Shown: positions 2,817 to 27,104 of the stretch, one piece after another | Position numbering within the stretch: the stretch's first letter is position 1 | How the letters are laid out: each line of letters starts with the position of its first letter | Assembly: GCA_016935095.1 (NCBI GenBank) | Contig: JAFGRO010000002.1 | Location: 3,306 to 67,305 of the forward strand | Direction: 5' to 3' | From: Candidatus Woesearchaeota archaeon | GTDB lineage: Archaea; Nanobdellota; Nanobdellia; Woesearchaeales; GW2011-AR15 | DNA length: 64,000 bases | Position numbers and translations under genes: made by a program | The notes under the pieces: generated by a model | Told to the model about the DNA's origin: nothing | Seen by the model: the letters and a program-made list of their open reading frames with translations, nothing else | Databases searched by the model: none

Positions 2817-4454
2817 TTATCTCTTTTTTAATATGCTATTTATTGCTTTAATTAATCTGTCATTAGCTTTTCCATCTGTTTTATAACAATATTCATAAGT
2901 CTCATTTTTTCTTTTTTCATTAATAGATTCTCTGAAGTTTTCATCAAATAGCATTTTTTTAATCAATTCATTTAATTTGTCACCGTGCTTAACAATAAAG
3001 ATAGAAGATATTCCATCAAACATATTTTCAAATAAATTCTCTCCGGACTCAAATTTCAGCAAGATACAGGGCCTGTTTAAGATCATTGCCTCAATCAAAG
3101 CAGTTGAGCCGAAGCTAATTACCAAGTCAGATTCCAGAATGGAATTATATAATATATCAGCGTTTTTATTACTTAGTGAGCCAAACCTGAATCTAATGTT
3201 TTTAATCCCAATCTTTTTGATTATTTTTTTATGCAAAGATATGTCTTTTTCAAGAGGATGTGTTTTAATGATAATCTCGGAATCAGGAAACTCTTTTAAA
3301 TTGGAAAACAGATAAAATAAATATTTTTCAAACTTTTCTTTAGGAAGAACTTTAAACTGCACTAGCGGTGAAGATAAGATTAATATTTTTTTTTTCCCTT
3401 TCTTTTTTTCTTTCTTTTTTATATAATTGCAGATACGCTCATTAATAAAAGAGCCAGTAACAAATATATTTTCAGGTTTCCATTCAGAGTATTTGATCAG
3501 TCTTTTTTTATCATTCGGGCCCCATACAGCAATCTTCGAGCTTGGAAAAAATTCAAAATTTATTCCTGTTAAATTATATGCATGAACTAAAAATAAAGAA
3601 GGTATTCCAGAAGAATGGGCAGCAGCAACCGCACACCTTTCCTGCAGACCGGAAACAACCAGTACAAGATCCAGTTGCTCTTTTTTAATAATATCTTTGA
3701 TTGTGTAATAATAAAGCAGGTAAATGAACAATATTTGTTTTGAGAATAATAAATCCAGTTCTTCATTCACAAACTTCAATAAGGATTCTTTTTTATAAGC
3801 AAATAGTCTCTCTTTAATCTTTTTATCTAATCTTTTCCATTTCCCGGAATATTTTTTTGCTTCTTTTAATGAGCGATAAAATGTTTCTTTGGAAATATAC
3901 TTATCAATCCAGTGATAATACCCTGAGGAAAGAGGCTTTTCAAATGGATTAGTGATTCTTGTTCCGATTACAGGAATTAATTCAATTTTATTGTCCTTTT
4001 CAAGTCTCCTGAATAATTCTCCAATTCTGAAAATATCAATTATTTTTCTTTTTTCATCCAGTTTAATCTGGTCAGTATGCGCTAGAAGCATGACCCTTTT
4101 CTTTTTTGTCTTTTTGCTTTTTTTTTTAACATCCTTTTTTTTAATTAACCTGATATAGTATGTGAAAATAATCACGCTAAGAAAGATTCTGAGGCTGAAT
4201 GAGGCTAGTTTCATCATAAGCCTATGAAAAAAAGAATAATCTCTTTTATCTAAAATTGCATTAAACCGTTTTGTGATTTCAAAGAAAGGAAGCGGAAAGC
4301 AGCCGGCATTAAACCTGAATGAATGAAACCACCAGATTGGGATGTTATCATCAATTTTAAAGGAGTCATCAAAACTCTGTTTATTGTTGATTTTTTTTTT
4401 TGACCAAACAAGTAGTGTCTCTTCAATGTTTTTTAAGGTGTCTCTTGTTTTCAT
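2817..4454 (-). CDS. Membrane-anchored GT-B-fold glycosyltransferase-like protein (TagF/KpsS 'capsule polysaccharide biosynthesis'-like). Candidate CMP-nonulosonate transferase. Paralog of 15985..17610.
   Basis: Hydrophobic helix near residue 90 (LASFSLRIFLSVIIFTYYIRLI). Poly-Lys linker KKKDVKKKSKKTKKKR. CAVAAAHSSGIPSLFLVHAYN motif. C-terminal GT-B-like nucleotide-binding region (VISFGSTALIEAMILNRPCILL). Family assignment not confirmed. Confidence 0.5.
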   Translation of the reverse strand: MKTRDTLKNIEETLLVWSKKKINNKQSFDDSFKIDDNIPIWWFHSFRFNAGCFPLPFFEITKRFNAILDKRDYSFFHRLMMKLASFSLRIFLSVIIFTYYIRLIKKKDVKKKSKKTKKKRVMLLAHTDQIKLDEKRKIIDIFRIGELFRRLEKDNKIELIPVIGTRITNPFEKPLSSGYYHWIDKYISKETFYRSLKEAKKYSGKWKRLDKKIKERLFAYKKESLLKFVNEELDLLFSKQILFIYLLYYYTIKDIIKKEQLDLVLVVSGLQERCAVAAAHSSGIPSLFLVHAYNLTGINFEFFPSSKIAVWGPNDKKRLIKYSEWKPENIFVTGSFINERICNYIKKKEKKKGKKKILILSSPLVQFKVLPKEKFEKYLFYLFSNLKEFPDSEIIIKTHPLEKDISLHKKIIKKIGIKNIRFRFGSLSNKNADILYNSILESDLVISFGSTALIEAMILNRPCILLKFESGENLFENMFDGISSIFIVKHGDKLNELIKKMLFDENFRESINEKRKNETYEYCYKTDGKANDRLIKAINSILKKR

Positions 4455-4478: not shown

Positions 4479-6227
4479 TTAATGATATTCATTATTCTTC
4501 AATATTGAATCCAGAAACTTTGAATTATTATAGATGGCATTAGTAAAATCATCTATTTTTCCGGAATTAAATGCTTCAATAATCTCAAGAATTCCCTGTT
4601 CAGCCTTTAGTTTAGTCCTGAAATTTAATTCTTTTTTAATTTTATCAAAATTCACTCTATAGTCTCGTTTATCAACATCTTTAAGCGAAATGTTCATCTT
4701 TGAGCTGGGAATTAATTCTTTTATTTTTTCTCCTATTTCAATAATTTTATAATTCTCTTCATTAGAGCCAACATTAAAAATTTCTCCTTTTACTTTGTTA
4801 ATAGGCGCTTCCAGAACTTTGATGTATGCGTCAGCAGCATCTTTTACATGAAGCAAGGGTCTCCATTGCTCTCCTCCGAAAACTGAAAATTCTCCTTTTT
4901 TTATGGCCAACGCTGTCAATATGTTCAAAACCAAATCAAATCTTGGCCTGTGAGAGAATCCGTAAAGTGTGCCCATCCTCATGATTGTAGGAGAAAAGTT
5001 TTCATCAGTTAATTCAAATAAACCTTTTTCACTGTTAATCTTGTCTCTTGCATATAACGAGACAGGGCTTAATTCTGAGTCTTCTGTTAAAATATCCTGG
5101 CCCTGCCCATAGACACTGCAGCTGGAGGCAAAAATAAACCTGTTAATCTGGTTGTATTTGCATATCTGAGCTAAATTTAAGGTTGCAAGATAATTCTGCT
5201 CAATTGTTTTTAAGGGGGATAAACCACATGCAGGATCTCCCACTATTCCTGCCAGATGAATCACAGCATTAACATCTCTTATTGATTTTGTGATATCTTC
5301 AATATGCCTTACATCACCTGTAACCAACCTGAAATTCGGATGATTTTCCAATTCACTGAGAGACTCTTTCCCGTATAATAATCTGTCCAGAACAACAACC
5401 CAGTATCCTCTTTTTAGGAGTTTTCTGACCAAGACCGAGCCCAAATACCCTGCGCCTCCTGTCACAAGAACAGAATTTATTTTTTTGTTTTTATAAGTTG
5501 AATAATTACTAAGATAATCATAGTAACCTTTGTTATAAACCTGTTTAAGTGCAGTTACCCTGGCTTCTTTATCTAAAACAGGGATTTTAAGAAATTTATT
5601 ATGGGGGATTAATCTAATTAGCTCTTCATTATCCATATTTTCTGTTCCGGTGACTGGATTTTTATTCATAATTTTGCCAATAGGCTCTTCATGACTTACT
5701 CCGGACAGAATTCCCTCTCTTATATCATTATCTGTAACAAGTCCTTTTAACCTTTCATTATCATCAACAATTAATCCAATCCCTAACCCGGATAAATCAA
5801 TCTTTTTCATTACAGATTTTAAAGAGTCATTTTTATTTACAAACACTTTCTCAAGTTCTTTGCCTTTTATTGAAACAGGCAACTCACTAAACTTGATAAA
5901 AATGTCAGCAACTTTATTGTCATCATCCACTAGGATAAGTTTTCCGACAATATCTCTTTTTTCAGTTAGTTCAATAAGTTCCTGTTTAGAAGAATTAATG
6001 TGGGCTGTAACTGGATTAAAATTAGCAATGCTTTTCAGCTTTTTGTTAATGTCATTATCTTTTATAAGGCCTCTTCTTAAATCCCCTGCGCTTACAATGC
6101 CTTTTAGCTTTTTATCCTGGTCAACTAATATGAGAATGCCTAACCCTGTCTCATTTAATATGCCTAGTCCTTTTTCAATAGTTTCATCCTCATTAACAAG
6201 AAGGGAATCTATAATGCCCTCATTCAT
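4479..6227 (-). CDS. Fusion protein: N-terminal tandem CBS domains plus C-terminal NAD-dependent sugar-nucleotide 4,6-dehydratase/epimerase (PseB/LegB/CapD-like)
   Basis: The N-terminal ~240 aa carry repeated CBS-like segments (VTAHINSSKQELIELTEKRDIVGKLILVDDDNKV; LKGLVTDNDIREGIL). The C-terminus has the Rossmann motif VLVTGGAGYLGSVLVRKLL and an SDR extended-family fold. Confidence 0.85.
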   Translation of the reverse strand: MNEGIIDSLLVNEDETIEKGLGILNETGLGILILVDQDKKLKGIVSAGDLRRGLIKDNDINKKLKSIANFNPVTAHINSSKQELIELTEKRDIVGKLILVDDDNKVADIFIKFSELPVSIKGKELEKVFVNKNDSLKSVMKKIDLSGLGIGLIVDDNERLKGLVTDNDIREGILSGVSHEEPIGKIMNKNPVTGTENMDNEELIRLIPHNKFLKIPVLDKEARVTALKQVYNKGYYDYLSNYSTYKNKKINSVLVTGGAGYLGSVLVRKLLKRGYWVVVLDRLLYGKESLSELENHPNFRLVTGDVRHIEDITKSIRDVNAVIHLAGIVGDPACGLSPLKTIEQNYLATLNLAQICKYNQINRFIFASSCSVYGQGQDILTEDSELSPVSLYARDKINSEKGLFELTDENFSPTIMRMGTLYGFSHRPRFDLVLNILTALAIKKGEFSVFGGEQWRPLLHVKDAADAYIKVLEAPINKVKGEIFNVGSNEENYKIIEIGEKIKELIPSSKMNISLKDVDKRDYRVNFDKIKKELNFRTKLKAEQGILEIIEAFNSGKIDDFTNAIYNNSKFLDSILKNNEYH

Positions 6228-7417
6228 TTGCAGGCCTCTTTAACTTCAGTTTTGAATTTATGTATCCTGATAATAGCTTTACATATTTTGTTAATTGTCT
6301 CTTCATCCATGAAATTATAGATAGGAAGACAAATCACATTATTTGAAACAAGTTCAGTATTTTTTAAATCATTATATTCTGCTTTTTCTTTATAAGCATC
6401 AAGTTTATGCATCGGAGGATAAAAATAAAATTTTGTCATAATATTTTCAGCATTCAATGCTCTTGCTAATTCATACCTGTTTAATCCAAATTCATTTTCA
6501 TTGACAGTAAATCCAAAATCCTTGTGTGTGGAAACATTTCCCTCTTTAATAATCTGGAAATTGATGCCCTGAATGTTTTTTAGTTCCTTTTTAAATTTAT
6601 CAACATAACTGTTCCTGTTTTCAACATATTTATCTAAATCTTTTAATTGGTGCAATCCTGTGACTGCGTTGATTTCGCTCATCCTTGCATTTAAACCAGG
6701 CCTCTTGCAGGAATAATCAGGATAATTGCCATAGTTCCTGTCAATTTTTAACATTTCAGCTAATTCAGTGTTATTTGTGGCTACTATTCCTCCTTCTATT
6801 GTCGTCAAAAGCTTTGTCGGGCTGGCACTGAAAACCTCAACATCACCAAACTGCCCGATTTTTTTTCCCTGATAAGATGAACCTAATGCATGGGCACAGT
6901 CAAAGATTAATTTTAAGTTATGTTTGCTGGCAATTTCCTGTAATCTCTCAATATAACAAGGGTTTCCATACATATGTACAGCAATAATTGCCTTTGTTTC
7001 AGGACTGATATTTTTTTCAACTTCTTCAGGTGAAATAGTAAATGTTTCCCTGTCAATATCAACAAATCTGATTTTGCAGTTATTCCAGTATGCGGCATGG
7101 ACTGTTGCAGAAAAGGTAAATGCAGGAACTAGCACTTCTGAATTTCTTAAACCAAGTGCCTGCATACTTAAAATTAAGCCGGATGTACAGGAAGAAACGC
7201 CTATAACATGTTTAACACCAATATAGTTTTCCAGTTCCTCTTCAAATTTCTTTAGTTTAATATCAACAGAAGTAAGCATATTGCTGTTTAAAACAGCGCT
7301 AATGTCTTTCAGCAATTCTTTTTCAACATATTTATCAACATTGGGCCTTATAATCGGCAGTCTTTTATCAAAAACAGCTCTCCCATTTAAAATTGCAGGT
7401 TTATTGTCCATTTTCAT
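6224..7417 (-). CDS. DegT/DnrJ/EryC1/StrS-family PLP-dependent sugar aminotransferase (PseC/LegC-like)
   Basis: Aminotransferase class V-like fold with the PLP-lysine context FSASPTKLLTT. The ORF track starts it at 7477, but the MKMDNK start at 7417 avoids a 77-nt overlap with the upstream gene. Confidence 0.85.
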   Translation of the reverse strand: MKMDNKPAILNGRAVFDKRLPIIRPNVDKYVEKELLKDISAVLNSNMLTSVDIKLKKFEEELENYIGVKHVIGVSSCTSGLILSMQALGLRNSEVLVPAFTFSATVHAAYWNNCKIRFVDIDRETFTISPEEVEKNISPETKAIIAVHMYGNPCYIERLQEIASKHNLKLIFDCAHALGSSYQGKKIGQFGDVEVFSASPTKLLTTIEGGIVATNNTELAEMLKIDRNYGNYPDYSCKRPGLNARMSEINAVTGLHQLKDLDKYVENRNSYVDKFKKELKNIQGINFQIIKEGNVSTHKDFGFTVNENEFGLNRYELARALNAENIMTKFYFYPPMHKLDAYKEKAEYNDLKNTELVSNNVICLPIYNFMDEETINKICKAIIRIHKFKTEVKEACK

Positions 7418-8075
7418 TATCTCCTTTAAAAATAAATTTATTTCCATATACTTCCAGGTAAGGTAAATCCCTTGCATTTGGAAAATATGTTGCTTTTAAT
7501 CTTCTTTTAATTTCATTTTCATCCATATCAAGGCTTAATTTACATAGTTCCTGCAAATCTTTTCTTGTATATGGTCTTCTTAACCATTTCTCATCTGACC
7601 TGGGTAAGGGTTTCTCTTTTTCAATGAATTTGAGAATATCATAAAATAAGGTGAGCATATAATCCATGGTTCTTTCTTTTAAAGATTGTACTGTATCTGT
7701 ATCCTGCATCTGGAATTTGATGGTTTTCACAATTTTTCCAGAATCAACTTTTTCCAGCATATAATGACATGTGGCGCCAAATTCCTTTTCCTGATTATAA
7801 ATTGCAAAATTATAACAGCCGATGCCAGGATATTTTGGGGATGCGGGATGGAAATTTATTGAAAACTTGGCTTTATTCAATAATTCTTTTGGAACAATCC
7901 AAGGTGAAAGATACGAGATAATATAATCACCTTCCCATTCAATATTGGGGAGAGGGTCACCGCTTTCACCTTCAAATATTTCTGTATTCGGAATTTTATT
8001 TTTAATACAATCCTGAACAATTTTGCAGTATTTTGATTTTTTTGTTAATAATAGGATTTTCATTTTTAATAACAA
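7401..8075 (-). CDS. Sugar N-formyltransferase (Formyl_trans_N family)
   Basis: FHPASPKYPGIGCYNFAIYN...GATCHYMLEKVDSGKIV matches the formyltransferase SLLPxYRG/HxxxxxxDxG catalytic-core pattern. Sits between the aminotransferase and the 2-epimerase, in the slot usually filled by an N-acetyltransferase. Confidence 0.75.
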   Translation of the reverse strand: MLLKMKILLLTKKSKYCKIVQDCIKNKIPNTEIFEGESGDPLPNIEWEGDYIISYLSPWIVPKELLNKAKFSINFHPASPKYPGIGCYNFAIYNQEKEFGATCHYMLEKVDSGKIVKTIKFQMQDTDTVQSLKERTMDYMLTLFYDILKFIEKEKPLPRSDEKWLRRPYTRKDLQELCKLSLDMDENEIKRRLKATYFPNARDLPYLEVYGNKFIFKGDNENGQ

Positions 8076-9217
8076 ATCTGCTTTTGGATTATATCTTTTG
8101 AAATTTTGATTTCACTTAATACTTTACAGATTTTAACTGAAGCAGTCCCTTCTCCATAAGGGTTTTTTATGTTTTTTAATAAATCTTTAAAATTTTCATC
8201 ATATAATGCTTTATTAATCGCTTTAATAATATCAGATTTGTCAAACTCAACATCAATCACGTTATTGCTTCTTTCTCTTAGCTTTTGCCTTATGCCAATA
8301 TTTACCACAGGTATCTTAAAAGAGGGAGCTTCTATTATACCTGAGCTTGAATTTCCGATTAAAACAGAACCATATTTTAATAATGAGAGATATTCTCTGT
8401 GCTTTAAATTTTTAAAAATTCTTAAAAATTTTTGATTCTTATTTCCCTCAATTATTTTAATTATCTGAAGAGTCCCAGAATCAGCATTGGGATAAATCAA
8501 TACTGTTGGCAAATCAAATTCTTTAATTGCATCAAGTGTTATTTTAAATTGTTTTCCTGAAGACCCGATTTCAGTTGTGACAGGATGCTGTAGAAGTATT
8601 AAAAAAGGCATATCCGGATCAATATTGAATCTTTTTTTGAAATCTTGTTTTGACATTAATTCTTCATGCAAAGCAGTATCTAGTCCTGAAGAACCCACAT
8701 TAAAAACATAATCCGGATTTTCTCCCATTTTAATTATTCTCTGTTTACTTTTTTCTGTAACTGCAAAATGAATATGGCTGAATTTTGTTATGGCATGTCT
8801 TGTGCATTCATCAAGACCTCCTGAAACATCCCCTCCGTGAATATGGGCAATAACCTTATTCATAAATGCTCCTGAAACAGCAGCAGCCAACGGCTCTGTT
8901 CTGTCACCTAAAATCAATATAATATCAGGATTTAAGTCTTTGAAAGCATTGGTTAAATTAATAATGCCTTTACCAACAGACCTGCTCATAAATTCTCCGC
9001 TGTCTCCGACTTCAGTCATTGGGACTTTTTTATCAATTGCAAAACCGTCTTTAATAATGTCTTCATAGGTATTACCGTATTCTTCCAAAAGGTGCATGCC
9101 CGTTGCAATTAACTGTAATGTGATTTTGTCATTTTCAGCTAGTCTTTTTATAATTGGCCTTAAAAGCCCGTATTCTGCTCTGGTTCCGGTCACAACACAA
9201 ATCTTTGTTTTTTTCAT
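8066..9217 (-). CDS. UDP-N-acetylglucosamine 2-epimerase family, hydrolysing type (NeuC/LegG-like)
   Basis: KICVVTGTRAEYGLLRPIIKRL and HIHGGDVSGGLDECTRHAITK are Epimerase_2 (WecB/NeuC) signatures. Confidence 0.85.
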   Translation of the reverse strand: MKKTKICVVTGTRAEYGLLRPIIKRLAENDKITLQLIATGMHLLEEYGNTYEDIIKDGFAIDKKVPMTEVGDSGEFMSRSVGKGIINLTNAFKDLNPDIILILGDRTEPLAAAVSGAFMNKVIAHIHGGDVSGGLDECTRHAITKFSHIHFAVTEKSKQRIIKMGENPDYVFNVGSSGLDTALHEELMSKQDFKKRFNIDPDMPFLILLQHPVTTEIGSSGKQFKITLDAIKEFDLPTVLIYPNADSGTLQIIKIIEGNKNQKFLRIFKNLKHREYLSLLKYGSVLIGNSSSGIIEAPSFKIPVVNIGIRQKLRERSNNVIDVEFDKSDIIKAINKALYDENFKDLLKNIKNPYGEGTASVKICKVLSEIKISKDIIQKQICY

Positions 9218-9228
9218 TTATTCCACTC

Positions 9229-10365
9229 TTATTCCAGCATCTCAAATGTAATTAAAGTGTCTTTTTTAATATCCTCTTTTGCTTTTCTTCCAATGATTTT
9301 TTCTAAAAATCTCGGGTGCAGACCCATGCCCGGTCTTTTAATTATTAAATCTTTCTTTTCTATTAACTTGCCTTTATTGATGTCTTTATCTGAGATTATG
9401 CTTTTTCTTGTAATTTTTGCAATTCGTAACTCTGCGTCATATGGTTTTTTTTCAGGTGACCCGAGGATTTTTTCAATATTATCTAATTTCAGATTCTCAC
9501 CAAATTGTTTATTAATCTCTTCAAAAGCCTGTTTTGGAGAGAGAATCTTATTATTAAAAATAAATCTTGAATATTTCATTATTTTTTCAATTTCATCAGG
9601 TTCAGCAGAAGCTTTGTGGTCAGGGCCATACATTTTTTTATCAAGTGTAAAATGTTTTTCAATTACATTAGCGTTAAGACATGCCGCTATTACAGATGCT
9701 TCAATTCCCTCACTATGATCCGAGAATCCGACCAGACAATTAAATTCATTTTTAAGTGTAAGCATTGCTCTCAGGTTAATTTTATCAAGAAGCGTTGGAT
9801 AATTAGTAGTGCATTGCAGTAATATGAGTTGGTCATTATTTTTCTTAATCACATCTACAGCTTCTCTGACTTCCTGTAAATTAGCCATTCCCGTACTAAG
9901 AAAGATTGGTTTGCCTAATCTTGAAACATAATCTAAAAACGGCAAATTAGTCAAATCTCCTGAACCAATTTTAAATCCGGGAATTCCAATTTTATCAAGA
10001 ACATCAGCACTCCATTTGCCGCAGTGAGGTGTTGATAAAAAAATAATCCCCTTCTTGTCACAGTACTCTTTCATGATTTTGTGTTGCTCTTCTGTTAATT
10101 CTATCCTTTTTAATAATTCAAGATAACTTTCATCACTTCCTGTGTTTTTTTTTGAATACTCGACCTGTTCTGTTTTTTCTGTTACAAGCAGTTCTGCTTT
10201 AAAAAGCTGGAACTTAATACTATCAACACCGATTTCCAGGGCTTTGTCAACTAATTCCTTTGCAATTTTAATATCTCCGTTATGGTTGACTCCGGCTTCA
10301 GCAATAATAAAGCAGGGATGATTTTGTCCGATTATTTTGTTGCCAATCTTAATTTTATCTTTCAT
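9229..10365 (-). CDS. Nonulosonate synthase (NeuB/LegI-like), copy 2, with C-terminal SAF domain
   Basis: CFIIAEAGVNHNGDIKIAKELVDKALEIG is the NeuB signature. The C-terminal ~60 aa look like a SAF antifreeze-like domain (LIIKRPGMGL). Confidence 0.9.
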   Translation of the reverse strand: MKDKIKIGNKIIGQNHPCFIIAEAGVNHNGDIKIAKELVDKALEIGVDSIKFQLFKAELLVTEKTEQVEYSKKNTGSDESYLELLKRIELTEEQHKIMKEYCDKKGIIFLSTPHCGKWSADVLDKIGIPGFKIGSGDLTNLPFLDYVSRLGKPIFLSTGMANLQEVREAVDVIKKNNDQLILLQCTTNYPTLLDKINLRAMLTLKNEFNCLVGFSDHSEGIEASVIAACLNANVIEKHFTLDKKMYGPDHKASAEPDEIEKIMKYSRFIFNNKILSPKQAFEEINKQFGENLKLDNIEKILGSPEKKPYDAELRIAKITRKSIISDKDINKGKLIEKKDLIIKRPGMGLHPRFLEKIIGRKAKEDIKKDTLITFEMLE

Positions 10366-11582
10366 TTCTCAGTCTCCCATATTGGGTGTCTCAGCTTCCA
10401 TTCTCCTTTTTCCTTTTTCCATAAATGAGGCGACCTGAATTTATCCGCTGTCTCAAAAAATTCATCTTTGCTCATATCCAGATACTCTAAAAATTCTTTG
10501 AAATATCGTTTTGGAAATTCTGAATCAAATTTCTTTACTAATGCAATCCCTTCATCCCTTGTGATCTTTTTATTCCTTATCTCCTGGGATGCATCATAGG
10601 TTGCTCTTCCAATCCCGAATTTGATAAGAGTTGTCCAATAATGATAAGGGTCTGTCTTGTCATCAATACTGTTATATTTTGAATAAGTTCCTTCGGTTCT
10701 CTGGTCATTTGGCTGAAACCCTATCTTTTCAACAGCAAAATAATAAGCTTCCTGGGGATCCCATTTCTCATAATAGCCGACGTAGTGTACATTGATTTCT
10801 TTATTATTTGCACTATCCGGATCAAGAGGAAGATAAGGATCAAGGTCAGTCATAGTTAATCCGTATTTTTTAATAAGCTCTCTGACCTGCACTCCTCCAA
10901 GGAATAAATTCATATAATCTCCATGTAAATGAAATTTTTTTTCTCTGAGAGAAGAAAGAACATCTTTTTTTGGGTTGCCGTATTCTGCTTCATTTTCACC
11001 GTAAAATACTAGAGGGACATCATACTTTAATGCAAATTTAGCCCCAATGTTTTTTTGTCCGAGAATAAACGGCTGGAATGGGTGAAGTAAATTGACAAAT
11101 GCTAATCTCGTTAATAACCTGTGTACCTTGCCATTTGGTGTAAACAGTATATTGTCAAATCCCCCTTTTTGAGTCCATGCGCGGAAATTACGCCACCCGT
11201 AAGGTGTAAATAAATGAGGTGCCCATGTAACAGTAAGAGGGTTCATATTGTATTTGTATTTTAACAGCCATGCTGCCATTGTGCTATCCTTGCCTCCGCT
11301 TCCCGGCACTATGCAATCATACCTACCCTCTGTTCTTCTGTATTTGTCACATAATCTTTTTAATTCTTTTTCTCTTTTTTTCCAGTCGATTTTCTCTTTT
11401 AATTCTGAAACTCTGCATGCATCGCAGATTCCTTCTTCATCAAAGTTGATGGTGTGTTTTTTGGATTTAACTGTATGTCTGAATTCCAGTGAAGAAGAAG
11501 GTCTTTGATTTGAAATAACACAATGTTTGCAGTATTTCACTTCTTTTGGTAATCCATAATATGCTTCTACGTTATTGTTCAT
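10362..11582 (-). CDS. N-acetyl sugar amidotransferase (WbuX/PseA/AglX family; PP-loop ATP pyrophosphatase)
   Basis: N-terminal Zn-ribbon cysteines (CKHCVISNQRP...GICDACR). PP-loop SGGKDS. Immediately upstream of a HisF/HisH paralog, as in the WbuXYZ / AglXYZ systems. Confidence 0.8.
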   Translation of the reverse strand: MNNNVEAYYGLPKEVKYCKHCVISNQRPSSSLEFRHTVKSKKHTINFDEEGICDACRVSELKEKIDWKKREKELKRLCDKYRRTEGRYDCIVPGSGGKDSTMAAWLLKYKYNMNPLTVTWAPHLFTPYGWRNFRAWTQKGGFDNILFTPNGKVHRLLTRLAFVNLLHPFQPFILGQKNIGAKFALKYDVPLVFYGENEAEYGNPKKDVLSSLREKKFHLHGDYMNLFLGGVQVRELIKKYGLTMTDLDPYLPLDPDSANNKEINVHYVGYYEKWDPQEAYYFAVEKIGFQPNDQRTEGTYSKYNSIDDKTDPYHYWTTLIKFGIGRATYDASQEIRNKKITRDEGIALVKKFDSEFPKRYFKEFLEYLDMSKDEFFETADKFRSPHLWKKEKGEWKLRHPIWETEK

Positions 11583-11592
11583 TTTTTCACCT

Positions 11593-13026
11593 TTATAAAG
11601 AACTAAAATATTGTATTATACTCATACCCAATGCTCCGCTTTTTTCCGGGTGGAACTGTGTTGCAAACAGACTGTCTCTTCTTAATATTGAGCAGAATTT
11701 CTGCTCACCGTATGTTGTTATTGCAACAATATTTTTCGGGTTTTCAGGATAAACATAATATGAATGAATAAAATAAGCTTCTGAGCAAGAAGACTTATTT
11801 GAAATAAACTCATTAAAGAATCCATTATTAGGTGTTAACTTATTCCAACCCATGTGAGGGATCCTGTAATATGTGTCCTTAACCTCTTTTTTAGGTTTAA
11901 AAGGAACTACTTTTCCCTGTATAATATCAAGCCCTTTATGATGTCCGAACTCAAAGCTTTCACTCATCAATACCTGCATTCCGAGACAGATTCCTAAAAA
12001 AGGTTTATTGTTCTTAATATATTTTTTAATCGGTTCAATAAAACCCCTGTTTTTAAGCTCCTGCATAGCATAACCAAATGCCCCGTCCCCTGGTAAAACC
12101 AAAAGGCTTGACTTTAGGATCTCTTCAGGATTTTCAATAATCTTTACTTTGTTCCCAAAAAACCTGAAAGCATTTACAACACTTTGTAAATTGCCTGCTC
12201 CGTAATCAATAACAGAGAGGGTCTTTTTATTATTGATATTTGGCTGTTCAACTTGCCATTCATTTTTTTCTCTCATTAAAAAATTATTTTTTTTAAGGTA
12301 AGCTTTTACTTGGTCTATAGATGTTTCATTATAATGTAAGATTGTACCAAAAGCAACAGCATCACATCTGGTTACTTCAAGACAATTCAGTATATCTGCT
12401 TCATTAGAAGCTCCTCCGCAAGCTATAACCGGCACATCAACCACAGATGAGATCTTTTTTATTAGTTCAACATCATATCCTTTTCTTGTCCCTTCCTTAT
12501 CCACAGAAGTAACAAGCAATTCTCCTGCACCTAATTCAACTAATTTTTTTGCCCATTCAATAGCATCTAGATTTGTTCTTTCCCTTCCGCAGTCAATATA
12601 GTTCTCCCATTTATCTTCTCCATGATATTTTGCTTCAATAGAGCCTACTATACACTGTGATCCGAACATTCTTGAAGCCTGATTAATAAATCCGGGATTT
12701 CTTATTGCAGCAGTATTAATTGCAACTTTATCTGCTCCTGCTCTCAGCAGTTTCTTAATATCTTCTATGGTCCTTATACCTCCTCCGACAGTGATAGGAA
12801 TAAAAATCCCGTTAGAGGTTGTATTTTCAACTACCTCAAGAAGATTGTTTCGCTCGTATAAACTGGCAACAATATCAATATAAATTATTTCATCAGCTCC
12901 TGACTCATAATACTTCTTAGCAAGCAAATCAGGCTTGCCTACAACTCTTAAACCTTCCATTTGTATTCCCTTGACAACATTAGGTCCCTTTACATCCAGT
13001 CTTGGAATAATTCTGATTTTCTTCAT
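11593..13026 (-). CDS. Fused imidazole-glycerol-phosphate-synthase-like protein: HisF-like cyclase domain (WbuZ) at the N-terminus and HisH-like class I glutamine amidotransferase (WbuY) at the C-terminus
   Basis: N-terminus IIPRLDVKGPNVVKGIQMEGLRVVGKP plus a second half-barrel (VTSVDKEGTRKGYD) give a HisF fold. C-terminus LSVIDYGAGNLQSVVNAFRFFG...GICLGMQVL...FHPEKS carries the GATase Cys-His-Glu triad. Confidence 0.85.
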   Translation of the reverse strand: MKKIRIIPRLDVKGPNVVKGIQMEGLRVVGKPDLLAKKYYESGADEIIYIDIVASLYERNNLLEVVENTTSNGIFIPITVGGGIRTIEDIKKLLRAGADKVAINTAAIRNPGFINQASRMFGSQCIVGSIEAKYHGEDKWENYIDCGRERTNLDAIEWAKKLVELGAGELLVTSVDKEGTRKGYDVELIKKISSVVDVPVIACGGASNEADILNCLEVTRCDAVAFGTILHYNETSIDQVKAYLKKNNFLMREKNEWQVEQPNINNKKTLSVIDYGAGNLQSVVNAFRFFGNKVKIIENPEEILKSSLLVLPGDGAFGYAMQELKNRGFIEPIKKYIKNNKPFLGICLGMQVLMSESFEFGHHKGLDIIQGKVVPFKPKKEVKDTYYRIPHMGWNKLTPNNGFFNEFISNKSSCSEAYFIHSYYVYPENPKNIVAITTYGEQKFCSILRRDSLFATQFHPEKSGALGMSIIQYFSSL

Positions 13027-13721
13027 TTTATCTCCATTAATTTTTCAGCTATCTTCCAGTCAATAGGCTCATCAATATCTATAGAACTGATCTTATCCAT
13101 AGGAAAGGGGAATACCCTTTTTCCATAGCCATAATTACCTGATTTAAAAATTACATCTGATGTGTAAATATAAATAGCCCCGTTTATTTCATAGGTTTCT
13201 TCTTCATCCTGTGTTCTTAAGACATTAAAATCATTCTCAAAAAGAAATCTTACTTGATTTTTCTCTTTTTTTAAAATCCACTGCGGACCAAGATGTCTCT
13301 TTGTCACAGAAAACAATGTGTCTGCATTATTGTCAGCAAATATTTTTATTGCAGAATCAATATGCTCGGCTTTTCTTAATGGAGATGTTGGTTGCAGCAG
13401 GACAACAATATCCGGAATATATTTCTCATTTGCATTCAGATAATTTAAAACATGCTTTAATACATCAATTGATTTAGACGTATCTTCTGCAAGTTCTTTT
13501 GGTCTGTCGATAATCTCCGCTTTGTATAGCAATGCACTGGCTTTTATTTCAGGGTCTTCAGTAGATACTATTGTCCTGTCAATATATTTTGAGTTTAGGG
13601 ATTGCTCAATAGAATAAGCAATTAACGGCCTGCCTTTTAATAATCTAATATTTTTTTTTTTAATTCTTTTAGAGCCGCCTCTGGCAGGAATTATTGAGAT
13701 AATCTTTCTCTTACCATACAT
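13023..13721 (-). CDS. Acylneuraminate cytidylyltransferase family (CMP-nonulosonate synthetase), copy 2
   Basis: IISIIPARGGSKRIKKKNIRLLKGRPLIAYSIEQS is a CTP_transf_3 signature. 4-nt overlap with the downstream gene. Confidence 0.85.
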   Translation of the reverse strand: MYGKRKIISIIPARGGSKRIKKKNIRLLKGRPLIAYSIEQSLNSKYIDRTIVSTEDPEIKASALLYKAEIIDRPKELAEDTSKSIDVLKHVLNYLNANEKYIPDIVVLLQPTSPLRKAEHIDSAIKIFADNNADTLFSVTKRHLGPQWILKKEKNQVRFLFENDFNVLRTQDEEETYEINGAIYIYTSDVIFKSGNYGYGKRVFPFPMDKISSIDIDEPIDWKIAEKLMEIK

Positions 13722-14220
13722 AAGGATCTACCCTGTCTTTATCATCATATTCCTTCAGTTTAAGCAGGTCATATGTTTCGAATTTGTATGCTACAGTTGT
13801 AAGTGATTCAGACCACTCGCTGATAAGATTGCTGTTCTTCTTTTTAATCTCGTCACTTACCCTTGCCAAATCCTCATGGTTTTTGGCAATTATGACAAGT
13901 GTGAAATCATATTCACCTGAGATTGAAAATACTTCTGCAATTCGCGGGTGTTTTACTACAAATTCTATGAATGATTGTACTTTTTTATGGTCATAGTTGT
14001 GCAACTTTACTTTTATGTCTACAATATAGGGATATCCAAGAATCCTTGGTCTCAGCTGGATTTTCGGGTTAAAAATCTTTTCTTTTCTCATCTTTTCAAT
14101 TCTTTTTTTTACTGAGTCAACAGAAAGCCCGACCTTTTTAGCTATGTCAGTCAGTGACATCCTGCAGTCTTCCTGAAGCAGATTCAGAATAAGACAGTTT
14201 TTTTTGTCTAAATCAACCAT
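13711..14220 (-). CDS. lrp: Lrp/AsnC-family transcriptional regulator (HTH plus RAM domain), first gene of the 14-kb operon
   Basis: N-terminal HTH LLQEDCRMSLTDIAKKVGLSVDSVKKRIEKM. C-terminal RAM/AsnC_trans_reg-like domain. 169 aa is typical for archaeal Lrp. Confidence 0.85.
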   Translation of the reverse strand: MVDLDKKNCLILNLLQEDCRMSLTDIAKKVGLSVDSVKKRIEKMRKEKIFNPKIQLRPRILGYPYIVDIKVKLHNYDHKKVQSFIEFVVKHPRIAEVFSISGEYDFTLVIIAKNHEDLARVSDEIKKKNSNLISEWSESLTTVAYKFETYDLLKLKEYDDKDRVDPYVW

Positions 14221-14507: not shown

Positions 14508-15953
14508 ATGTTCACAAAAAAAAACAAAGTATTGTTTATAATTCATGATGTATACCAGGAAGATAATCAGTTTCCATTAGGTCCAGGTTATCTTGCTGCT
14601 GTTCTTAATGATAAAGGAGCTTATGTTGAATCATACTGTATGGATATATTTCATTATACCCATGAGCAGCTGGCAGAGCATTTGCAGAAAAACGAGTATG
14701 ATTTAATATGTCTGGGCTTTTTAGCTGCCAGGTTCAAGGAAACAGTTCTTGATTTAAGCAGAGTTATTAATCAGAATAAGAAAAATGCATGGCTTGTTTT
14801 AGGTGGTCACGGTCCCTCTCCGATTCCTGAATATGTGCTAAAAACCACACAGGCAGATGTTATTGCTATAGGCGAGGCAGAAAACACTATTGTTGAATTA
14901 TTAAAATGCAAAATATCAGATGGTGATTTATCAGAAGTGCATGGCATTGCTTACCCTGAAAATAATGAAATAAGAATAACGCAAAAAAATAATATTGTTA
15001 AAAATCTGGACAACATCCCTTTTCCCTTGTGGGATATATTTCCAATGGCTAAATATACTACTTGTTTACAATTATTTAATCAGGAGTCAAATGAAAAAAG
15101 TTTTGTATTCCTCACGAGCAGGGGCTGTGTAAACAGGTGTAATTTCTGCTACAGGCTTGAAAAAGGGCTGAGATTAAGAAGTATATCAAATATTATTGAA
15201 GAATTCAGACAATTATATGACAGATATGGTTTGAATTGTTATTTTTTCATGGATGAATTATTTGTATTAAATAAAAAACGGTTATTGGAATTTGAAAAAG
15301 CACTTAAAGATGCAAATCTGAAAATAAAATTCTCCTGCAATGCAAGAGTTGACATTATGGATGAAGAAATGGTGAGGATTCTTAAAAGATGCGGCTGCCA
15401 ATTTATAAATTTCGGTTTTGAATCAAGCGATGATAATGTGCTTAAACTCATGAATAAAAATGCGACTGTTGAACAAAATATAAGGACGCTTGAGGTTGTT
15501 AAGAAGGTAGGAGGAATAGGGATGGGTCTTAATTTTCTCTGGAATAATTTAGGTGATAGCGAAAGAACCCTGAAGCAGAATGTTGCATTAATAAAGAGAT
15601 ACAACACATATGACCAATGCCGTACAATCAGACCTGTTACGCCTTATCCCGGATCTGATTTATATTATAAATTGATTGAGCTAGGGAAACTAAAAGGTCC
15701 TGAAGATTTTTTTAACAGGTTTATAAATTCAGATTTAATTTTAGTTAACCTTATGGATATGCCAGATAAAGAAGCATATCAGCATTTGTTAAAAGCAAAC
15801 ACAGAGCTTATTCTTGACCATTATAAGCATACCCAAGGAGATATGGAAAAGGCAAATGCGCTTATCCGGAAATTCAAAGACTTGTATGAGGGCAGGATAA
15901 CTAATTTTCGTGGTGCCAGGCATTATAACAAAAACGAGCAACAGAGTAAATAG
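14508..15953 (+). CDS. Cobalamin-binding (B12) radical SAM protein, class B radical-SAM family
   Basis: N-terminal B12-binding-like Rossmann domain (KVLFIIHDVYQ...LGPGYLAAVL...DLICLG). Radical-SAM cluster motif RGCVNRCNFCY (CxxxCxxC). Confidence 0.85.
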   Translation: MFTKKNKVLFIIHDVYQEDNQFPLGPGYLAAVLNDKGAYVESYCMDIFHYTHEQLAEHLQKNEYDLICLGFLAARFKETVLDLSRVINQNKKNAWLVLGGHGPSPIPEYVLKTTQADVIAIGEAENTIVELLKCKISDGDLSEVHGIAYPENNEIRITQKNNIVKNLDNIPFPLWDIFPMAKYTTCLQLFNQESNEKSFVFLTSRGCVNRCNFCYRLEKGLRLRSISNIIEEFRQLYDRYGLNCYFFMDELFVLNKKRLLEFEKALKDANLKIKFSCNARVDIMDEEMVRILKRCGCQFINFGFESSDDNVLKLMNKNATVEQNIRTLEVVKKVGGIGMGLNFLWNNLGDSERTLKQNVALIKRYNTYDQCRTIRPVTPYPGSDLYYKLIELGKLKGPEDFFNRFINSDLILVNLMDMPDKEAYQHLLKANTELILDHYKHTQGDMEKANALIRKFKDLYEGRITNFRGARHYNKNEQQSK

Positions 15954-17664: not shown

Positions 17665-18687
17665 ATGATTAATTTAATTAAACAAAAATTTCAGTCTTTT
17701 GCAAATAATAACCTGTTATTCAAAAAAACCCTTTTCTTTTTAATAAATACCTTCCCTTTTGATAAAGTTTACGATTTTTTGTATAAAAATCAGATTAAAA
17801 AAATAGCTACAAAAATAAAAATTCCAGGTTATATCCTTATTGAGCCGTACAATGTCTGCAATGCCCGCTGCACAATTTGTCCTTATAAAAAAATGACCAG
17901 GAAAAAACAGCTCATGCAGATGAAATTGTTCAAAAAAATCATTGATGACTGTAAAAATAACAATATTAAGACAATTGATTTAACGTTTTATAATGAGGCT
18001 TTTTTAGACCCGCTTCTGTTTGAGAGGATAAAGTATGTTAAAGACAACAATCTGAGGATTTATCTTTTTTCAAATGGTTCTGTTTTAAATAAACAAAATA
18101 TTGACAGAATTCTTGAGATGGAAGTAGATGATATCAGTTTCAGCCTTGATGGTGCAGCTAAAAAAACATATGAAAAAATCAGAAAAGGCCTGAATTATGA
18201 TACAGTTAAGGAGAATATTCTGAATTTAATAAAAGAAAGAGATAAGAGGAAACTCAAGAAACCAAGAATCGAGCTGAATTATGTAATCACAAATGAGAAT
18301 TTAGCTGAAATTGAAAAATTTAAGGGACAATGGAAAAATCTTGCTGATAATATAAGGTTTAGTGTTGTTGACACCCGGGAACAGGAAAACAAGCTTCCGA
18401 AAAAATATAAAGTAAAAAAATCAAAAAAGCCATGGCCATGCACGAGAATCTGGGAAGCAATGCAGGTAATGAGCAATGGAAAAGTAGTGATGTGCTGTGT
18501 TGATTATGATGGTGAAGTTATTGTAGGTGATTTAAATAAACAGACCATTAAGGAAATATGGGACAGTGATAAATTTAAAAGATTAAGATTGCTGCATTTA
18601 AAAAATAAAGCAGATAAAATCCCCCTATGCAGGAAATGTTCCTGGCTTTACAGGCACAACAGGGTTAACTGGTGGTTTTTTAATTAA
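17665..18687 (+). CDS. Radical SAM protein with C-terminal SPASM/twitch-type auxiliary Cys cluster
   Basis: CNARCTICPY (CxxxCxxC) near the N-terminus. C-terminal cysteines WPCTRIW...MCCVDYDG...CRKCSW fit a SPASM auxiliary 4Fe-4S domain. Confidence 0.8.
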   Translation: MINLIKQKFQSFANNNLLFKKTLFFLINTFPFDKVYDFLYKNQIKKIATKIKIPGYILIEPYNVCNARCTICPYKKMTRKKQLMQMKLFKKIIDDCKNNNIKTIDLTFYNEAFLDPLLFERIKYVKDNNLRIYLFSNGSVLNKQNIDRILEMEVDDISFSLDGAAKKTYEKIRKGLNYDTVKENILNLIKERDKRKLKKPRIELNYVITNENLAEIEKFKGQWKNLADNIRFSVVDTREQENKLPKKYKVKKSKKPWPCTRIWEAMQVMSNGKVVMCCVDYDGEVIVGDLNKQTIKEIWDSDKFKRLRLLHLKNKADKIPLCRKCSWLYRHNRVNWWFFN

Positions 18688-24067: not shown

Positions 24068-24131
24068 TTTAAATCACCCTTTTTATTATATATATTTAAA
24101 ATGAAAACTACGAACATGAGTGAGTTTGTTT

Positions 24132-25290: not shown

Positions 25291-25301
25291 TTTTTTCAGC
25301 C

Positions 25302-26288: not shown

Positions 26289-26362
26289 CCCAAGATATAA
26301 ACAAAAATAACCGCTATATAAAGCTTTCGCCGAAAAATTTATAAAGAGAAAATCTCATAAAT

Positions 26363-27103: not shown

Positions 27104-27104
27104 T

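Follow-up and report, generated by a model that had tools for sequence, protein, structure and literature searches.

Formylated nonulosonic acids (NulOs) are an already known concept, and three published precedents come close to the locus described here. PseJ is a structurally solved and assayed formyltransferase which replaces the N-acetyltransferase of its pathway and yields the N7-formyl sugar Pse5Ac7Fo (PDB 6ci2, 6ci4, 6ci5 and 6edk; PMC11040635). In Halorubrum sp. PV6 a predicted and transcribed formyltransferase, HrrPV6_1050, is encoded between legG and neuD in a legionaminic acid (Leg) cluster, and the N-glycan bears N-formyl legionaminic acid of the 5-N-formyl type (PMC6137143). Furthermore, Ca. 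Kuenenia stuttgartiensis carries a Leg-like cluster of legB and legC homologues, a formyltransferase gene and neuB/legF/legG, and MS revealed CMP-NulOs in which an amine is formylated (SugarBase preprint).

We analyzed a 64-kb stretch of a Candidatus Woesearchaeota contig, here referred to as the window, in which a formyltransferase gene is located within a Leg-type operon. PseJ belongs to the same superfamily as the protein of the window and is comparably small. It is, however, a distant relative (single-sequence E ~2e-3; profile score 52 bits, covering the core residues 33-151 only). It was missing from the top 50 Foldseek matches and its profile rank was below WbkC, WlaRD and ArnA. PseJ is an enzyme of the Pse route (PseB, PseC, PseG, PseI), whereas the window is of the Leg/Neu type with a NeuC-like hydrolysing 2-epimerase. 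As judged from the cluster descriptions, HrrPV6_1050 is likewise archaeal, part of a Leg-type cluster and next to legG, but its sugar is the 5-N-formyl form and its cluster adds a NeuD-like acetyltransferase. The Kuenenia cluster, likewise compared by its description, combines a deacetylase with a free-amine sugar, whereas the window encodes an amidotransferase and no deacetylase.

LegH/PglD occupies the same slot, the acylation of the 4-amine of NDP-4-amino-4,6-dideoxy-GlcNAc ahead of the 2-epimerase step. These enzymes differ by their unrelated left-handed beta-helix fold and by acetyl-CoA as donor, and none is encoded in the window. ArnA/ArnB follow the same logic of an SDR C4-oxidase, a DegT aminotransferase and a Formyl_trans_N domain acting on a nucleotide sugar, and the ArnA N-domain matched the formyltransferase profile with 55 bits. 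However, ArnA is a fusion of 660 aa with UDP-GlcA or Ara4N as substrate. We find it fairly probable that the protein of the window is an N10-formyl-THF-dependent NDP-sugar N-formyltransferase which performs the Leg-type N-acylation in place of LegH/PglD.

Gene and operon structure

The formyltransferase gene is real and intact. The sequence-only reading of the window had placed a protein of 224 aa at 7401-8075. An ORF is indeed present there, but on the minus strand, and the gene codes for 220 aa; the plus-strand translation of 7401-8075 was full of stops. The end at 8075 corresponds to an in-frame upstream TTG, and 224 aa is the mechanical length of the ORF from this TTG. The start at the ATG is supported by the aligned homologues, all of which (25/25) begin with MKI or MKL, and it is also the start of the public gene call of 220 aa. 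An NCBI entry of identical sequence (100%) bears the name 'hypothetical protein JXB41_00165 [Candidatus Woesearchaeota archaeon]'.

Together with the formyltransferase gene the operon comprises 13 genes, all consistently orientated on the minus strand (Table 1). The 2-epimerase gene upstream ends 2 nt before the formyltransferase start codon (+2 nt). At its 3' end the gene is overlapped over 17 nt by the aminotransferase gene (-17 nt), whose ATG is preceded by a GGAG 4 nt upstream. With these junctions the operon is translationally coupled, and the two neighbours are those named in the sequence-only reading. The genes for the SDR, aminotransferase, formyltransferase, LegG-like 2-epimerase, NeuB, amidotransferase and CMP-synthetase follow one another in an order exactly opposite to that of the Leg pathway.

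Table 1. Features of the operon, ordered by position in the window
Feature	Position	Strand	Evidence or remark
SAM methyltransferase, distal operon	217-936	minus	Pfam, NCBIfam
Second cytidylyltransferase, distal operon	923-1678	minus	Pfam, NCBIfam
Second NeuB paralogue, distal operon	1683-2714	minus	Pfam, NCBIfam
Candidate nonulosonate transferase (TIGR04396/BFO_1060-like C-terminal half)	2817-4454	minus	NCBIfam, below cut-off
CBS-CBS-SDR fusion, presumed 4-keto sugar maker	4479-6227	minus	PF00571 (x2), PF01370
DegT-family sugar aminotransferase	6224-7417	minus	PF01041, 349.6 bits
Putative sugar N-formyltransferase	7401-8063	minus	220 aa + stop; ATG at 8063
Catalytic core of the formyltransferase	7743-7856	minus	Asn70, His72, Asp107 and HPASPKYPG folate-loop motif
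NeuC/LegG-type hydrolysing NDP-sugar 2-epimerase	8066-9217	minus	TIGR03568, 455 bits vs 235.9
Nonulosonic acid synthase, NeuB family + SAF	9229-10365	minus	PF03102, 278 bits; PF08666
WbuX-type N-acetyl sugar amidotransferase (makes acetamidino)	10362-11582	minus	TIGR03573, 374.6 bits vs 203.2
HisF-like/HisH-like fusion (WbuZ + glutaminase), ammonia-delivering partner of WbuX	11593-13026	minus	PF00977, PF00117
CMP-nonulosonate synthetase (cytidylyltransferase)	13023-13721	minus	PF02348, 98 bits
Lrp/AsnC-type regulator, first gene of the operon	13711-14220	minus	PF13404, PF01037; 11-nt overlap with next gene

The core of the operon is of the Leg type, with a LegG-type 2-epimerase, a NeuB-family synthase and a CMP-synthetase. 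The best PDB match of the 2-epimerase was the GDP/UDP-N,N'-diacetylbacillosamine 2-epimerase 5xvs with 276 bits, compared to 57 bits for SiaA (6vlb). NeuB reached 399.2 bits with TIGR03569 (cut-off 399.65), the HisF/HisH fusion 276 bits with the WbuZ model TIGR03572 and 188 bits with HisH, and the CMP-synthetase had a PseF-like match of 157 bits, which is under the cut-off. The scores of the candidate transferase with TIGR04396 (55 bits) and NF046086 (54 bits) were below the cut-offs as well. The Pse route is absent from the window, with PseB at 48 bits against a cut-off of 408 and PseG not found. Since a NeuC-type epimerase is present instead, the pathway is of the Leg/Neu type. The slot formerly ascribed to either PseH or LegH is therefore the LegH-type slot of a Leg-type operon, and PseH is not the relevant comparison.

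This slot is occupied by the formyltransferase, as had been proposed from the sequence alone. A Pfam search of the 64-kb window, covering all ORFs with a length of 120 aa or more, detected no Hexapep or GNAT acyltransferase, and a tblastn search of the window with eight LbH seeds from related loci yielded no acetyltransferase either. The LegB/LegC/NeuC/NeuB clusters of relatives agree with this picture (see below). Additionally, neither a PIG-L deacetylase nor a PtmE-like GlcN-1-P nucleotidyltransferase was found in the window.

The two enzymes preceding the formyltransferase in the proposed pathway are less typical. For the aminotransferase, the NCBIfam ranking was DesI, PseC and LegC, none of which reached its cut-off (LegC TIGR04181 212 bits vs 420), and the best PDB match was DesI (2po3, 204 bits). 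By these scores the enzyme appears DesI/Per-like and not LegC-like. Similarly, the SDR is unlike the LegB- or PglF-type dehydratases (LegB TIGR04180 98.5 bits vs 475). In the motif comparison with these types it showed SSCSVYG, without the Asp/Glu base of the canonical 4,6-dehydratases. Its best PDB match was 6vo6 with 148 bits, which we take to be Cj1427, a GDP-heptose C4-dehydrogenase. The Cys motif S-[ST]-C-S-x-Y-G is invariant in this Cj1427-like SDR type, and six further NulO loci, belonging to Omnitrophota, Fibrobacterota, Alphaproteobacteria and DPANN, offer no candidate for the step besides this SDR type. A GDP-heptose gene set is located at 23.4-28 kb of the window. As a general explanation a GDP-heptose module was rejected, because SIS and GHMP-kinase genes accompanied the Cj1427-like SDR type in one of 18 loci.

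The formyltransferase and its occurrence in other genomes

In Pfam the protein matched Formyl_trans_N (PF00551) with 47.4 bits (gathering score 26.1; E 2.4e-12; residues 54-134). Asn70, His72 and Asp107 (codons 7856-7854, 7850-7848 and 7745-7743) were invariant in an alignment of 26 family sequences and aligned with the N, H and D of WbkC in HMMER alignments. The earlier call of a sugar N-formyltransferase is thus upheld with an intact Asn-His-Asp triad, and the HPASPKYPG motif on which it drew is present, its first residue being residue 72.

The AF2 model (pLDDT 95) has the two-part fold of the class, a catalytic domain followed by a small C-terminal subdomain, and the protein is in the class size of about 220-260 aa. 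The best Foldseek matches were WbkC, Shewanella 6v2t, Rv3404c, VioF and WbtJ (E ~1e-14), with TM values of 0.75-0.77 over ~240 columns, i.e. the full length, at a sequence identity of 17-22%. These top matches are all 4-N-formyltransferases of NDP-4-amino sugars. In the profile-to-PDB comparison WbkC was again the best match (66 bits, residues 33-213, including the C-terminal subdomain). Judged by sequence and model, the protein is a predicted sugar-type N-formyltransferase matching the 4-N-formyltransferases of nucleotide sugars. None of the NCBIfam equivalog cut-offs was reached, including that of the dTDP-4-amino-4,6-dideoxyglucose formyltransferase PRK07579 (36.3 bits vs 238).

With the WbkC-type enzymes (~240 aa), i.e. 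the Brucella GDP-perosamine N-formyltransferase WbkC itself, VioF, WbtJ, Rv3404c, Shewanella 6v2t and P. congelans 6v33, which gave the best profile and structure matches, the protein shares the triad, the small C-terminal subdomain and the predicted 4-amine of a nucleotide sugar as acceptor. However, its N-terminal half is ~30 residues shorter, with the catalytic Asn at 70 instead of ~100. The WbkC-type substrates are GDP-perosamine or dTDP-Qui4N in O-antigen pathways and not a 2-acetamido sugar bound for NeuC and NeuB.

At E<=1e-30 the family comprises ~509 clusters, which form a separate family, by sequence one of putative sugar N-formyltransferases. It was found inside a NeuB/NeuC cluster in 31 of the 80 species genomes carrying it (~40% of those sampled). 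Given this number and the precedents of PseJ, Halorubrum and Kuenenia, the view of the sequence-only reading that a placement within a NulO operon is unusual has to be given up.

A compact module of SDR, DegT, formyltransferase, NeuB and NeuC genes recurs in the loci L027, L029, L062, L064, L033 and L066, and the five-gene set is contiguous in over 10 phyla, its dehydratase or oxidase being of three different types. The SDR is LegB in L064, L062 and L033 (504-515 bits vs a cut-off of 475). L062 and L033 also carry a LegC-family aminotransferase (524 and 504 bits vs 420), with L064 just under the cut-off (397 bits), and in L001 and L004 the SDR is of the PglF type. In the bona fide LegB/LegC/NeuC/NeuB clusters the family member is the sole acyltransferase candidate, and no recurrent acetyltransferase was found among 97 accessory ORFs.

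The formyltransferase of the window belongs to an archaeal clade with L001, L004, L006, L007 and L008, which is always located in NeuB clusters. In L001/L005, L004 and L006 (DPANN) the genes of FolD and 5-formyl-THF cyclo-ligase directly adjoin the formyltransferase gene, in L001 together with SHMT, which speaks indirectly for a folate as the source of the formyl group. When sought as in the L001/L004/L006 loci, no folate C1 genes were present in the window.

The family is not confined to NulO clusters. In a Bacteroidota clade the gene order is formyltransferase, PglD-like, SDR and DegT, with NeuB and NeuC both lacking. In a Chloroflexi clade Wzy and GT genes are the neighbours. Fusions of family members to PglD-type acetyltransferases occurred repeatedly in other lineages, and a PIG-L deacetylase is added in 9/31 NulO loci. 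Both observations suggest that in some lineages another nitrogen may be formylated.

Proposed pathway and alternative readings

In the proposed pathway the CBS-SDR would oxidise C4 of an NDP-HexNAc, perhaps with 4,6-dehydration, and C4 would then be transaminated by the DegT enzyme. The formyltransferase would put a formyl group on the new 4-amine via Asn70, His72 and Asp107, like other Formyl_trans_N enzymes, with N10-formyl-THF as the predicted donor. Subsequently, the LegG-like NeuC would take off the nucleotide and epimerise C2, and NeuB would condense the hexose with PEP, by which the 4-formamido group would end as N7 of the nine-carbon acid. WbuX together with HisF/HisH would convert the remaining N5-acetamido group to acetamidino, and the cytidylyltransferase would make the CMP-sugar for a downstream transferase. 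The route is predicted to end in a CMP-5-acetamidino-7-formamido nonulosonic acid, with no stereochemistry assigned.

From the context, formylation of the 4-amine (giving N7) would be the simplest reading, as the window holds no other free amine or acyltransferase: with no PIG-L encoded in it, the amine installed by the DegT enzyme would be the only free one. The product would most likely be a 7-N-formyl nonulosonic acid, and probably the 5-acetamidino-7-formamido form. The atypical SDR allows for a variant of this pathway, which we consider unlikely. Here the SDR would be a C4-dehydrogenase that does not dehydrate its substrate and is re-oxidised by alpha-ketoglutarate from the aminotransferase reaction, and the pathway would lead to a 4-formamido-4-deoxy-HexNAc retaining its 6-OH and finally to an undescribed 9-hydroxy 5-acetamid(in)o-7-formamido-3,5,7-trideoxy-nonulosonic acid. 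Such a product would amount to a 7-amino sialic acid and not to a 9-deoxy legionaminic acid.

Many homologues carry the JGI label 'methionyl-tRNA formyltransferase', and accordingly the protein might be a housekeeping enzyme (methionyl-tRNA formyltransferase or PurN) lying by chance in a glycan operon. The corresponding NCBIfam matches are weak, with 43.3 bits for PurN and 34.3 bits for Fmt (TIGR00460) against far higher cut-offs of 150.1 and 201.5, and Pfam detected no Formyl_trans_C tRNA-binding domain (PF02911) in the protein. Its full-length structural matches, including the C-terminal subdomain, are sugar formyltransferases and the context of the family members is consistently glycan-related. 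Moreover, to our knowledge the initiator Met-tRNA is not formylated in Archaea. A housekeeping role is hardly credible and effectively refuted; besides Fmt and PurN, an identity as ArnA was ruled out (43.1 bits vs 777). More weight has to be given to a scheme, in our view still rather unlikely, in which the SDR, the aminotransferase and the formyltransferase make a separate NDP-4-formamido-4-deoxy(-6-deoxy) hexose or heptose, like N-formylperosamine or Qui4NFo. NeuC, NeuB and the cytidylyltransferase, which would be enough for Neu5Ac, would on their own turn UDP-GlcNAc into a sialic-acid-type sugar, and both sugars would enter the same glycan. This would fit the nearest sequence and structure neighbours of the formyltransferase, which use GDP-perosamine or dTDP-Qui4N and not NulO precursors, as well as the closeness of the aminotransferase to DesI and perosamine synthase and of the SDR to Cj1427, with GDP-heptose genes in the same window. 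The same SDR type is also found with DegT and formyltransferase genes, but without NeuB/NeuC, in ~13 Bacteroidota loci. However, the NeuC of the window is nearest to the diNAcBac (LegG-type) epimerase and far from SiaA, and heptose genes accompany the SDR type in the single locus mentioned above. The contiguity of the five genes across phyla includes bona fide LegB and LegC-family enzymes, for which we know of no role other than Leg synthesis.

A quite unlikely alternative concerns the position of the formyl group. The 2-amino group of an NDP-GlcN-type intermediate would be formylated, resulting in a 5-N-formyl legionaminic-type acid as in Halorubrum sp. PV6, while the 4-amine would stay free or be capped by an enzyme encoded elsewhere. 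The sole structurally assigned archaeal formyl-NulO is indeed the 5-N-formyl sugar of this strain, whose cluster combines the formyltransferase with a NeuD-like acetyltransferase, and the Kuenenia CMP-NulOs have one amine formylated and another free, with a deacetylase and a formyltransferase encoded in the cluster. The fusions to PglD-type 4-N-acetyltransferases in several lineages point in the same direction. In L053 such a fusion is joined by PIG-L, LegB and LegC, which fits an acetyl group at N7 and an exchange of acetyl for formyl at N5. Across the NulO loci, however, PIG-L and LbH were not associated (3 co-occurrences observed vs 2.25 expected), and the window has no deacetylase, PtmE-like nucleotidyltransferase or acetyltransferase by which this route could proceed. 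None of the structural neighbours is a 2-N sugar formyltransferase, the top ones being 4-N enzymes throughout. Furthermore, WbuX and WbuZ need the N-acetyl group to remain, and formylation at N5 would remove it. Formylation of the 4-amine within a Leg-type pathway is the reading that we prefer.

Surface charge, antigenicity and recognition by phages and viruses are determined by the N-acyl groups that nonulosonic acids carry, and work on the Halorubrum virus HRPV-1 reportedly suggests that formyl-legionaminic acid is such a recognition element. For the window, the surface of a DPANN archaeon (Woesearchaeota) decorated with a formamido/acetamidino nonulosonic acid is predicted. The assignment is also of value for the annotation of the ~500 clusters of the family, which are now named 'hypothetical', 'formyltransferase family protein' or, wrongly, 'methionyl-tRNA formyltransferase'. 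Cultured carriers, namely Azospirillum lipoferum 4B (plasmid AZO_p6), Ornatilinea apprima and Pelagerythrobacter marinus, give a route to testing the function of the formyltransferase. A scan of viral contigs gave only five relatives.

The operon and its pathway type

The sugar N-formyltransferase gene (FT) belongs to an operon of 13 genes, spaced by -17 to +24 nt from one gene to the next except at a single gap of 102 nt. In order these encode an Lrp/AsnC regulator, a cytidylyltransferase, a WbuZ-like HisF-HisH fusion, the amidotransferase WbuX (375 bits, cut-off 203), NeuB with a SAF domain, a NeuC-type hydrolysing 2-epimerase (455 bits, cut-off 236), FT, a DegT aminotransferase, a CBS-CBS-SDR fusion, a TIGR04396/BFO_1060-like candidate nonulosonic acid (NulO) transferase, a second NeuB, a second cytidylyltransferase and a methyltransferase. 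Between the SDR and the first cytidylyltransferase, both included, the genes stand in exactly the opposite order to the steps of the legionaminic acid (Leg) pathway. FT lies in the acyltransferase slot between aminotransferase and 2-epimerase, where the sequence-only reading had placed it; it begins 2 nt past NeuC and overlaps DegT by 17 nt.

Neither PseG nor PseB was found. Among solved enzymes the NeuC is nearest to a hydrolysing 2-epimerase for GDP/UDP-N,N'-diacetylbacillosamine (276 bits); SiaA, which belongs to sialic acid metabolism, is a distant match (57 bits). Judged by its genes, the route is of the Leg/Neu type and not of the pseudaminic (Pse) type. Among all ORFs of 120 aa or more in the 64-kb window there was no hexapeptide or GNAT acyltransferase, tblastn with eight hexapeptide-type (LbH) seeds from related loci found none there either, and the window contained no PIG-L deacetylase.

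The HisF-like (WbuZ) and HisH-like glutaminase domains form one fused protein of 477 aa beside WbuX; separate genes encode them in most bacterial relatives. At the distal end, the second NeuB paralogue (343 aa) lacks a SAF domain and is extended by about 70 aa at its N-terminus. Together with the second cytidylyltransferase and the SAM methyltransferase it hints at another ulosonic acid or at a variant with a modification. The candidate nonulosonate transferase is 545 aa long; its C-terminal half gives weak matches to TIGR04396 ('surface carbohydrate biosynthesis protein') and to the glycosyltransferase family of BFO_1060 (Tannerella).

Coordinates of features in the window and in loci of FT relatives (L numbers, other genomes)
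Feature	Position	Strand
Operon, 13 genes	14220 to 217	minus
HisF-HisH fusion	11593-13026	minus
FT	7401-8063	minus
Asn70 codon (verified)	7856-7854	minus
His72 codon (verified)	7850-7848	minus
Asp107 codon (verified)	7745-7743	minus
CBS-CBS-SDR fusion, SDR domain nearest 6vo6	4479-6227	minus
545-aa candidate transferase	2817-4454	minus
Second NeuB, cytidylyltransferase, methyltransferase	217-2714	minus
Heptose-type gene set	23417-28040	minus
Radical SAM genes (three B12-binding, one SPASM)	14508-15953, 17665-18687, 28388-29935, 47431-49164	plus, plus, minus, plus
Folate C1 genes, L001/L005	10659-13367	
Folate C1 genes, L004	10653-12065	
Folate C1 genes, L006	6972-9858	
FT-PglD-type fusion, L053	9281-10654	
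Azospirillum lipoferum 4B AZO_p6, family member directly after neuB, L084	8896-9588	
Vibrio anguillarum pLO2, lone family member, L085	3305-4021	

The formyltransferase and its nearest solved enzymes

FT had been described as a 224-aa Formyl_trans_N protein at 7401-8075. The ORF is present on the minus strand (the plus-strand translation is interrupted by stops) and the family assignment stands (47.4 bits, threshold 26.1), but the length does not: 224 aa results from an in-frame TTG upstream of the true start, the ATG at 8063, which gives 220 aa. Every homologue in a 26-sequence family alignment starts with MK(I/L)L at this ATG, and the public gene call is a 100% identical protein of 220 aa ('hypothetical protein JXB41_00165 [Candidatus Woesearchaeota archaeon]'). 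Since the window is AT-rich (32.5% GC), long open frames are unlikely to arise by chance.

No NCBIfam model reached its cut-off with FT; ArnA scored 43 bits (cut-off 777), PurN 43 (150), Fmt 34 (201.5) and the dTDP-Qui4N formyltransferase PRK07579 36 (238). Pfam found no Formyl_trans_C domain. The family alignment shows no variation at Asn70, His72 (the H of HPASPKYPG) or Asp107, and the catalytic residues of WbkC align with them. The two grounds on which the assignment might have been dropped, missing catalytic His/Asp and orthology to Fmt, do not apply, since both residues are present and FT is not an Fmt orthologue. With PurN and Fmt both far below their cut-offs, a housekeeping formyltransferase is hardly credible.

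By family profile the best solved relative is WbkC (66 bits, residues 33-213 including the C-terminal subdomain), the GDP-perosamine N-formyltransferase, followed by WlaRD, ArnA, PseJ (52 bits, core only), the LgrA F-domain and VioF. The AlphaFold model of FT, built with the family alignment, reached a pLDDT of 95. Its top Foldseek matches (E ~1e-14, TM 0.75-0.77) were WbkC, Shewanella 6v2t, Rv3404c, VioF, WbtJ and P. congelans 6v33, all 4-N-formyltransferases of NDP-4-amino-4,6-dideoxyhexoses; Fmt and the 3-N-formyltransferases ranked lower, and PseJ was absent among the top 50. WbkC and VioF are nearer to the family than PseJ is. Our literature search found no family member with a reported assay.

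Relatives, precedents and the formylated nitrogen

The family comprises about 509 clusters at E<=1e-30 (50% identity clusters; 1.84 billion representatives), and 251 of the scanned species genomes contain relatives, from DPANN, Methanosarcinales and Thermoplasmata to Verrucomicrobiota, Alphaproteobacteria, Acidobacteriota, Chloroflexota, Planctomycetota, Bacteroidota, Omnitrophota and others. NeuB and/or NeuC accompany DegT and SDR in 31 of the 80 best loci, and a compact SDR-DegT-FT-NeuB-NeuC module is repeated in six (L027, L029, L062, L064, L033, L066). The SDR exceeds the NCBIfam cut-off for LegB in L064, L062 and L033 (504-515 against 475), the aminotransferase that of the LegC family in L062 and L033 (524 and 504 against 420). 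An LbH acyltransferase of any kind is present in just 8 of the 31 NulO loci. Among 97 ORFs in NulO clusters that had no other assignment, Pfam found radical SAM, B12-binding, PIG-L, WbqC and GFO families and no recurrent acetyltransferase.

The window's FT falls into an archaeal clade (L001, L004, L006, L007, L008; 56-60% identity), every member of which lies in a NeuB cluster. Among cultured organisms, plasmid AZO_p6 of Azospirillum lipoferum 4B carries a 'formyltransferase family protein' (43% identity) after neuB, with an aminotransferase and neuC further along. The lone member (38% identity) on the 7.9-kb plasmid pLO2 of Vibrio anguillarum serovar O2 has no sugar genes around it, and five IMG/VR contigs classed as viral (L087-L091) carry relatives of 42-47% identity. 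In L001/L005, L004 and L006, 5-formyl-THF cyclo-ligase and FolD flank FT, with SHMT added in L001; this local one-carbon module of DPANN archaea, absent from the window, would supply N10-formyl-THF.

The placement in a NulO operon had been called unusual, which is contradicted by precedents; a formyltransferase in place of the pathway's acetyltransferase is an established idea. PseJ, for which structures are solved, is cited in PMC11040635 as the enzyme that completes the Pse5Ac7Fo pathway. In Halorubrum sp. PV6 a predicted formyltransferase gene, which is transcribed, lies between legG and neuD, and the glycan contains formyl-Leg (PMC6137143). Ca. Kuenenia has a Leg-like cluster with deacetylase and formyltransferase as well as formylated CMP-NulOs (preprint), and formyltransferases were noted in flagellin glycosylation islands (PMC5109656). 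The finding is sound and of use for annotation, and would not surprise a specialist.

FT is probably the N-acylation enzyme of a Leg-type pathway. The analysis shows its fold, triad, gene context and recurrence. With acceptor, donor, regiochemistry and stereochemistry as we infer them, the SDR would yield a 4-keto NDP-HexNAc, DegT would aminate C4, and FT would transfer formyl from N10-formyl-THF to this 4-amine via the Asn-His-Asp triad. NeuC would then hydrolyse and epimerise, NeuB add PEP, WbuX with HisF/HisH form the N5-acetamidino group, and the cytidylyltransferase activate the product.

The family also occurs outside NulO clusters: a Bacteroidota clade combines FT, a PglD-like gene, SDR and DegT without NeuB or NeuC, and a Chloroflexota clade adjoins Wzy and GT genes. 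A separate module for a 4-formamido sugar is unlikely in the window. FT is fused repeatedly, in either order, to PglD-type (PglD_N plus hexapeptide) acetyltransferases (proteins P0124, P0125, P0126, P0133; locus L053), and elsewhere to ATP-grasp, GT2, methyltransferase or PP-binding domains; P0249 is a further fusion protein. Nine NulO loci have an additional PIG-L deacetylase; L053 combines it with an FT-PglD-type fusion, LegB and LegC. Acetyltransferase, deacetylase and FT make a route to 5-N-formyl-7-N-acetyl-Leg plausible there, the sugar actually found in Halorubrum (PMC6137143). The nitrogen that is formylated may therefore differ across the family as a whole. In the window N5-formylation is very unlikely: WbuX/WbuZ argues for a retained N-acetyl group, which the amidotransferase requires, and with neither deacetylase nor acetyltransferase the DegT-installed 4-amine (the future N7) is the simplest acceptor.

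The Cj1427-like SDR and the surrounding glycan genes

Among solved structures the SDR domain is most closely related to 6vo6 (148 bits), which we take to be Cj1427, a GDP-heptose C4-dehydrogenase. Cj1427 acts as such without dehydration and recycles NADH with alpha-ketoglutarate (PMC10680097). The active-site strand of the window's SDR reads SSCSVYG; the corresponding sequence is STSEVYG in LegB and STDKA in the PglF-type enzymes from L001 and L004. The subfamily motif, S-[ST]-C-S-x-Y-G with a Cys invariant across 18 loci, takes the place of the Glu/Asp-containing motif of these 4,6-dehydratases. None of the window's three SDRs contains the canonical dehydratase motif. In six other NulO loci, and in about 12 Bacteroidota FT-PglD-SDR-DegT loci, no SDR but one of the Cj1427-like type is a candidate. 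The window's SDR may be a non-canonical dehydratase. That it leaves the 6-OH in place, leading to a 9-hydroxy diamino-NulO, is quite unlikely.

Elsewhere in the window, genes for a transaldolase, HAD phosphatase, SIS isomerase, GHMP kinase, nucleotidyltransferase and SDR resemble a set for GDP-D-glycero-D-manno-heptose synthesis. Four radical SAM genes are scattered in the glycan island; radical SAM (13 of 97) and B12-binding (8 of 97) proteins are also the commonest accessory ORFs in the related NulO clusters.
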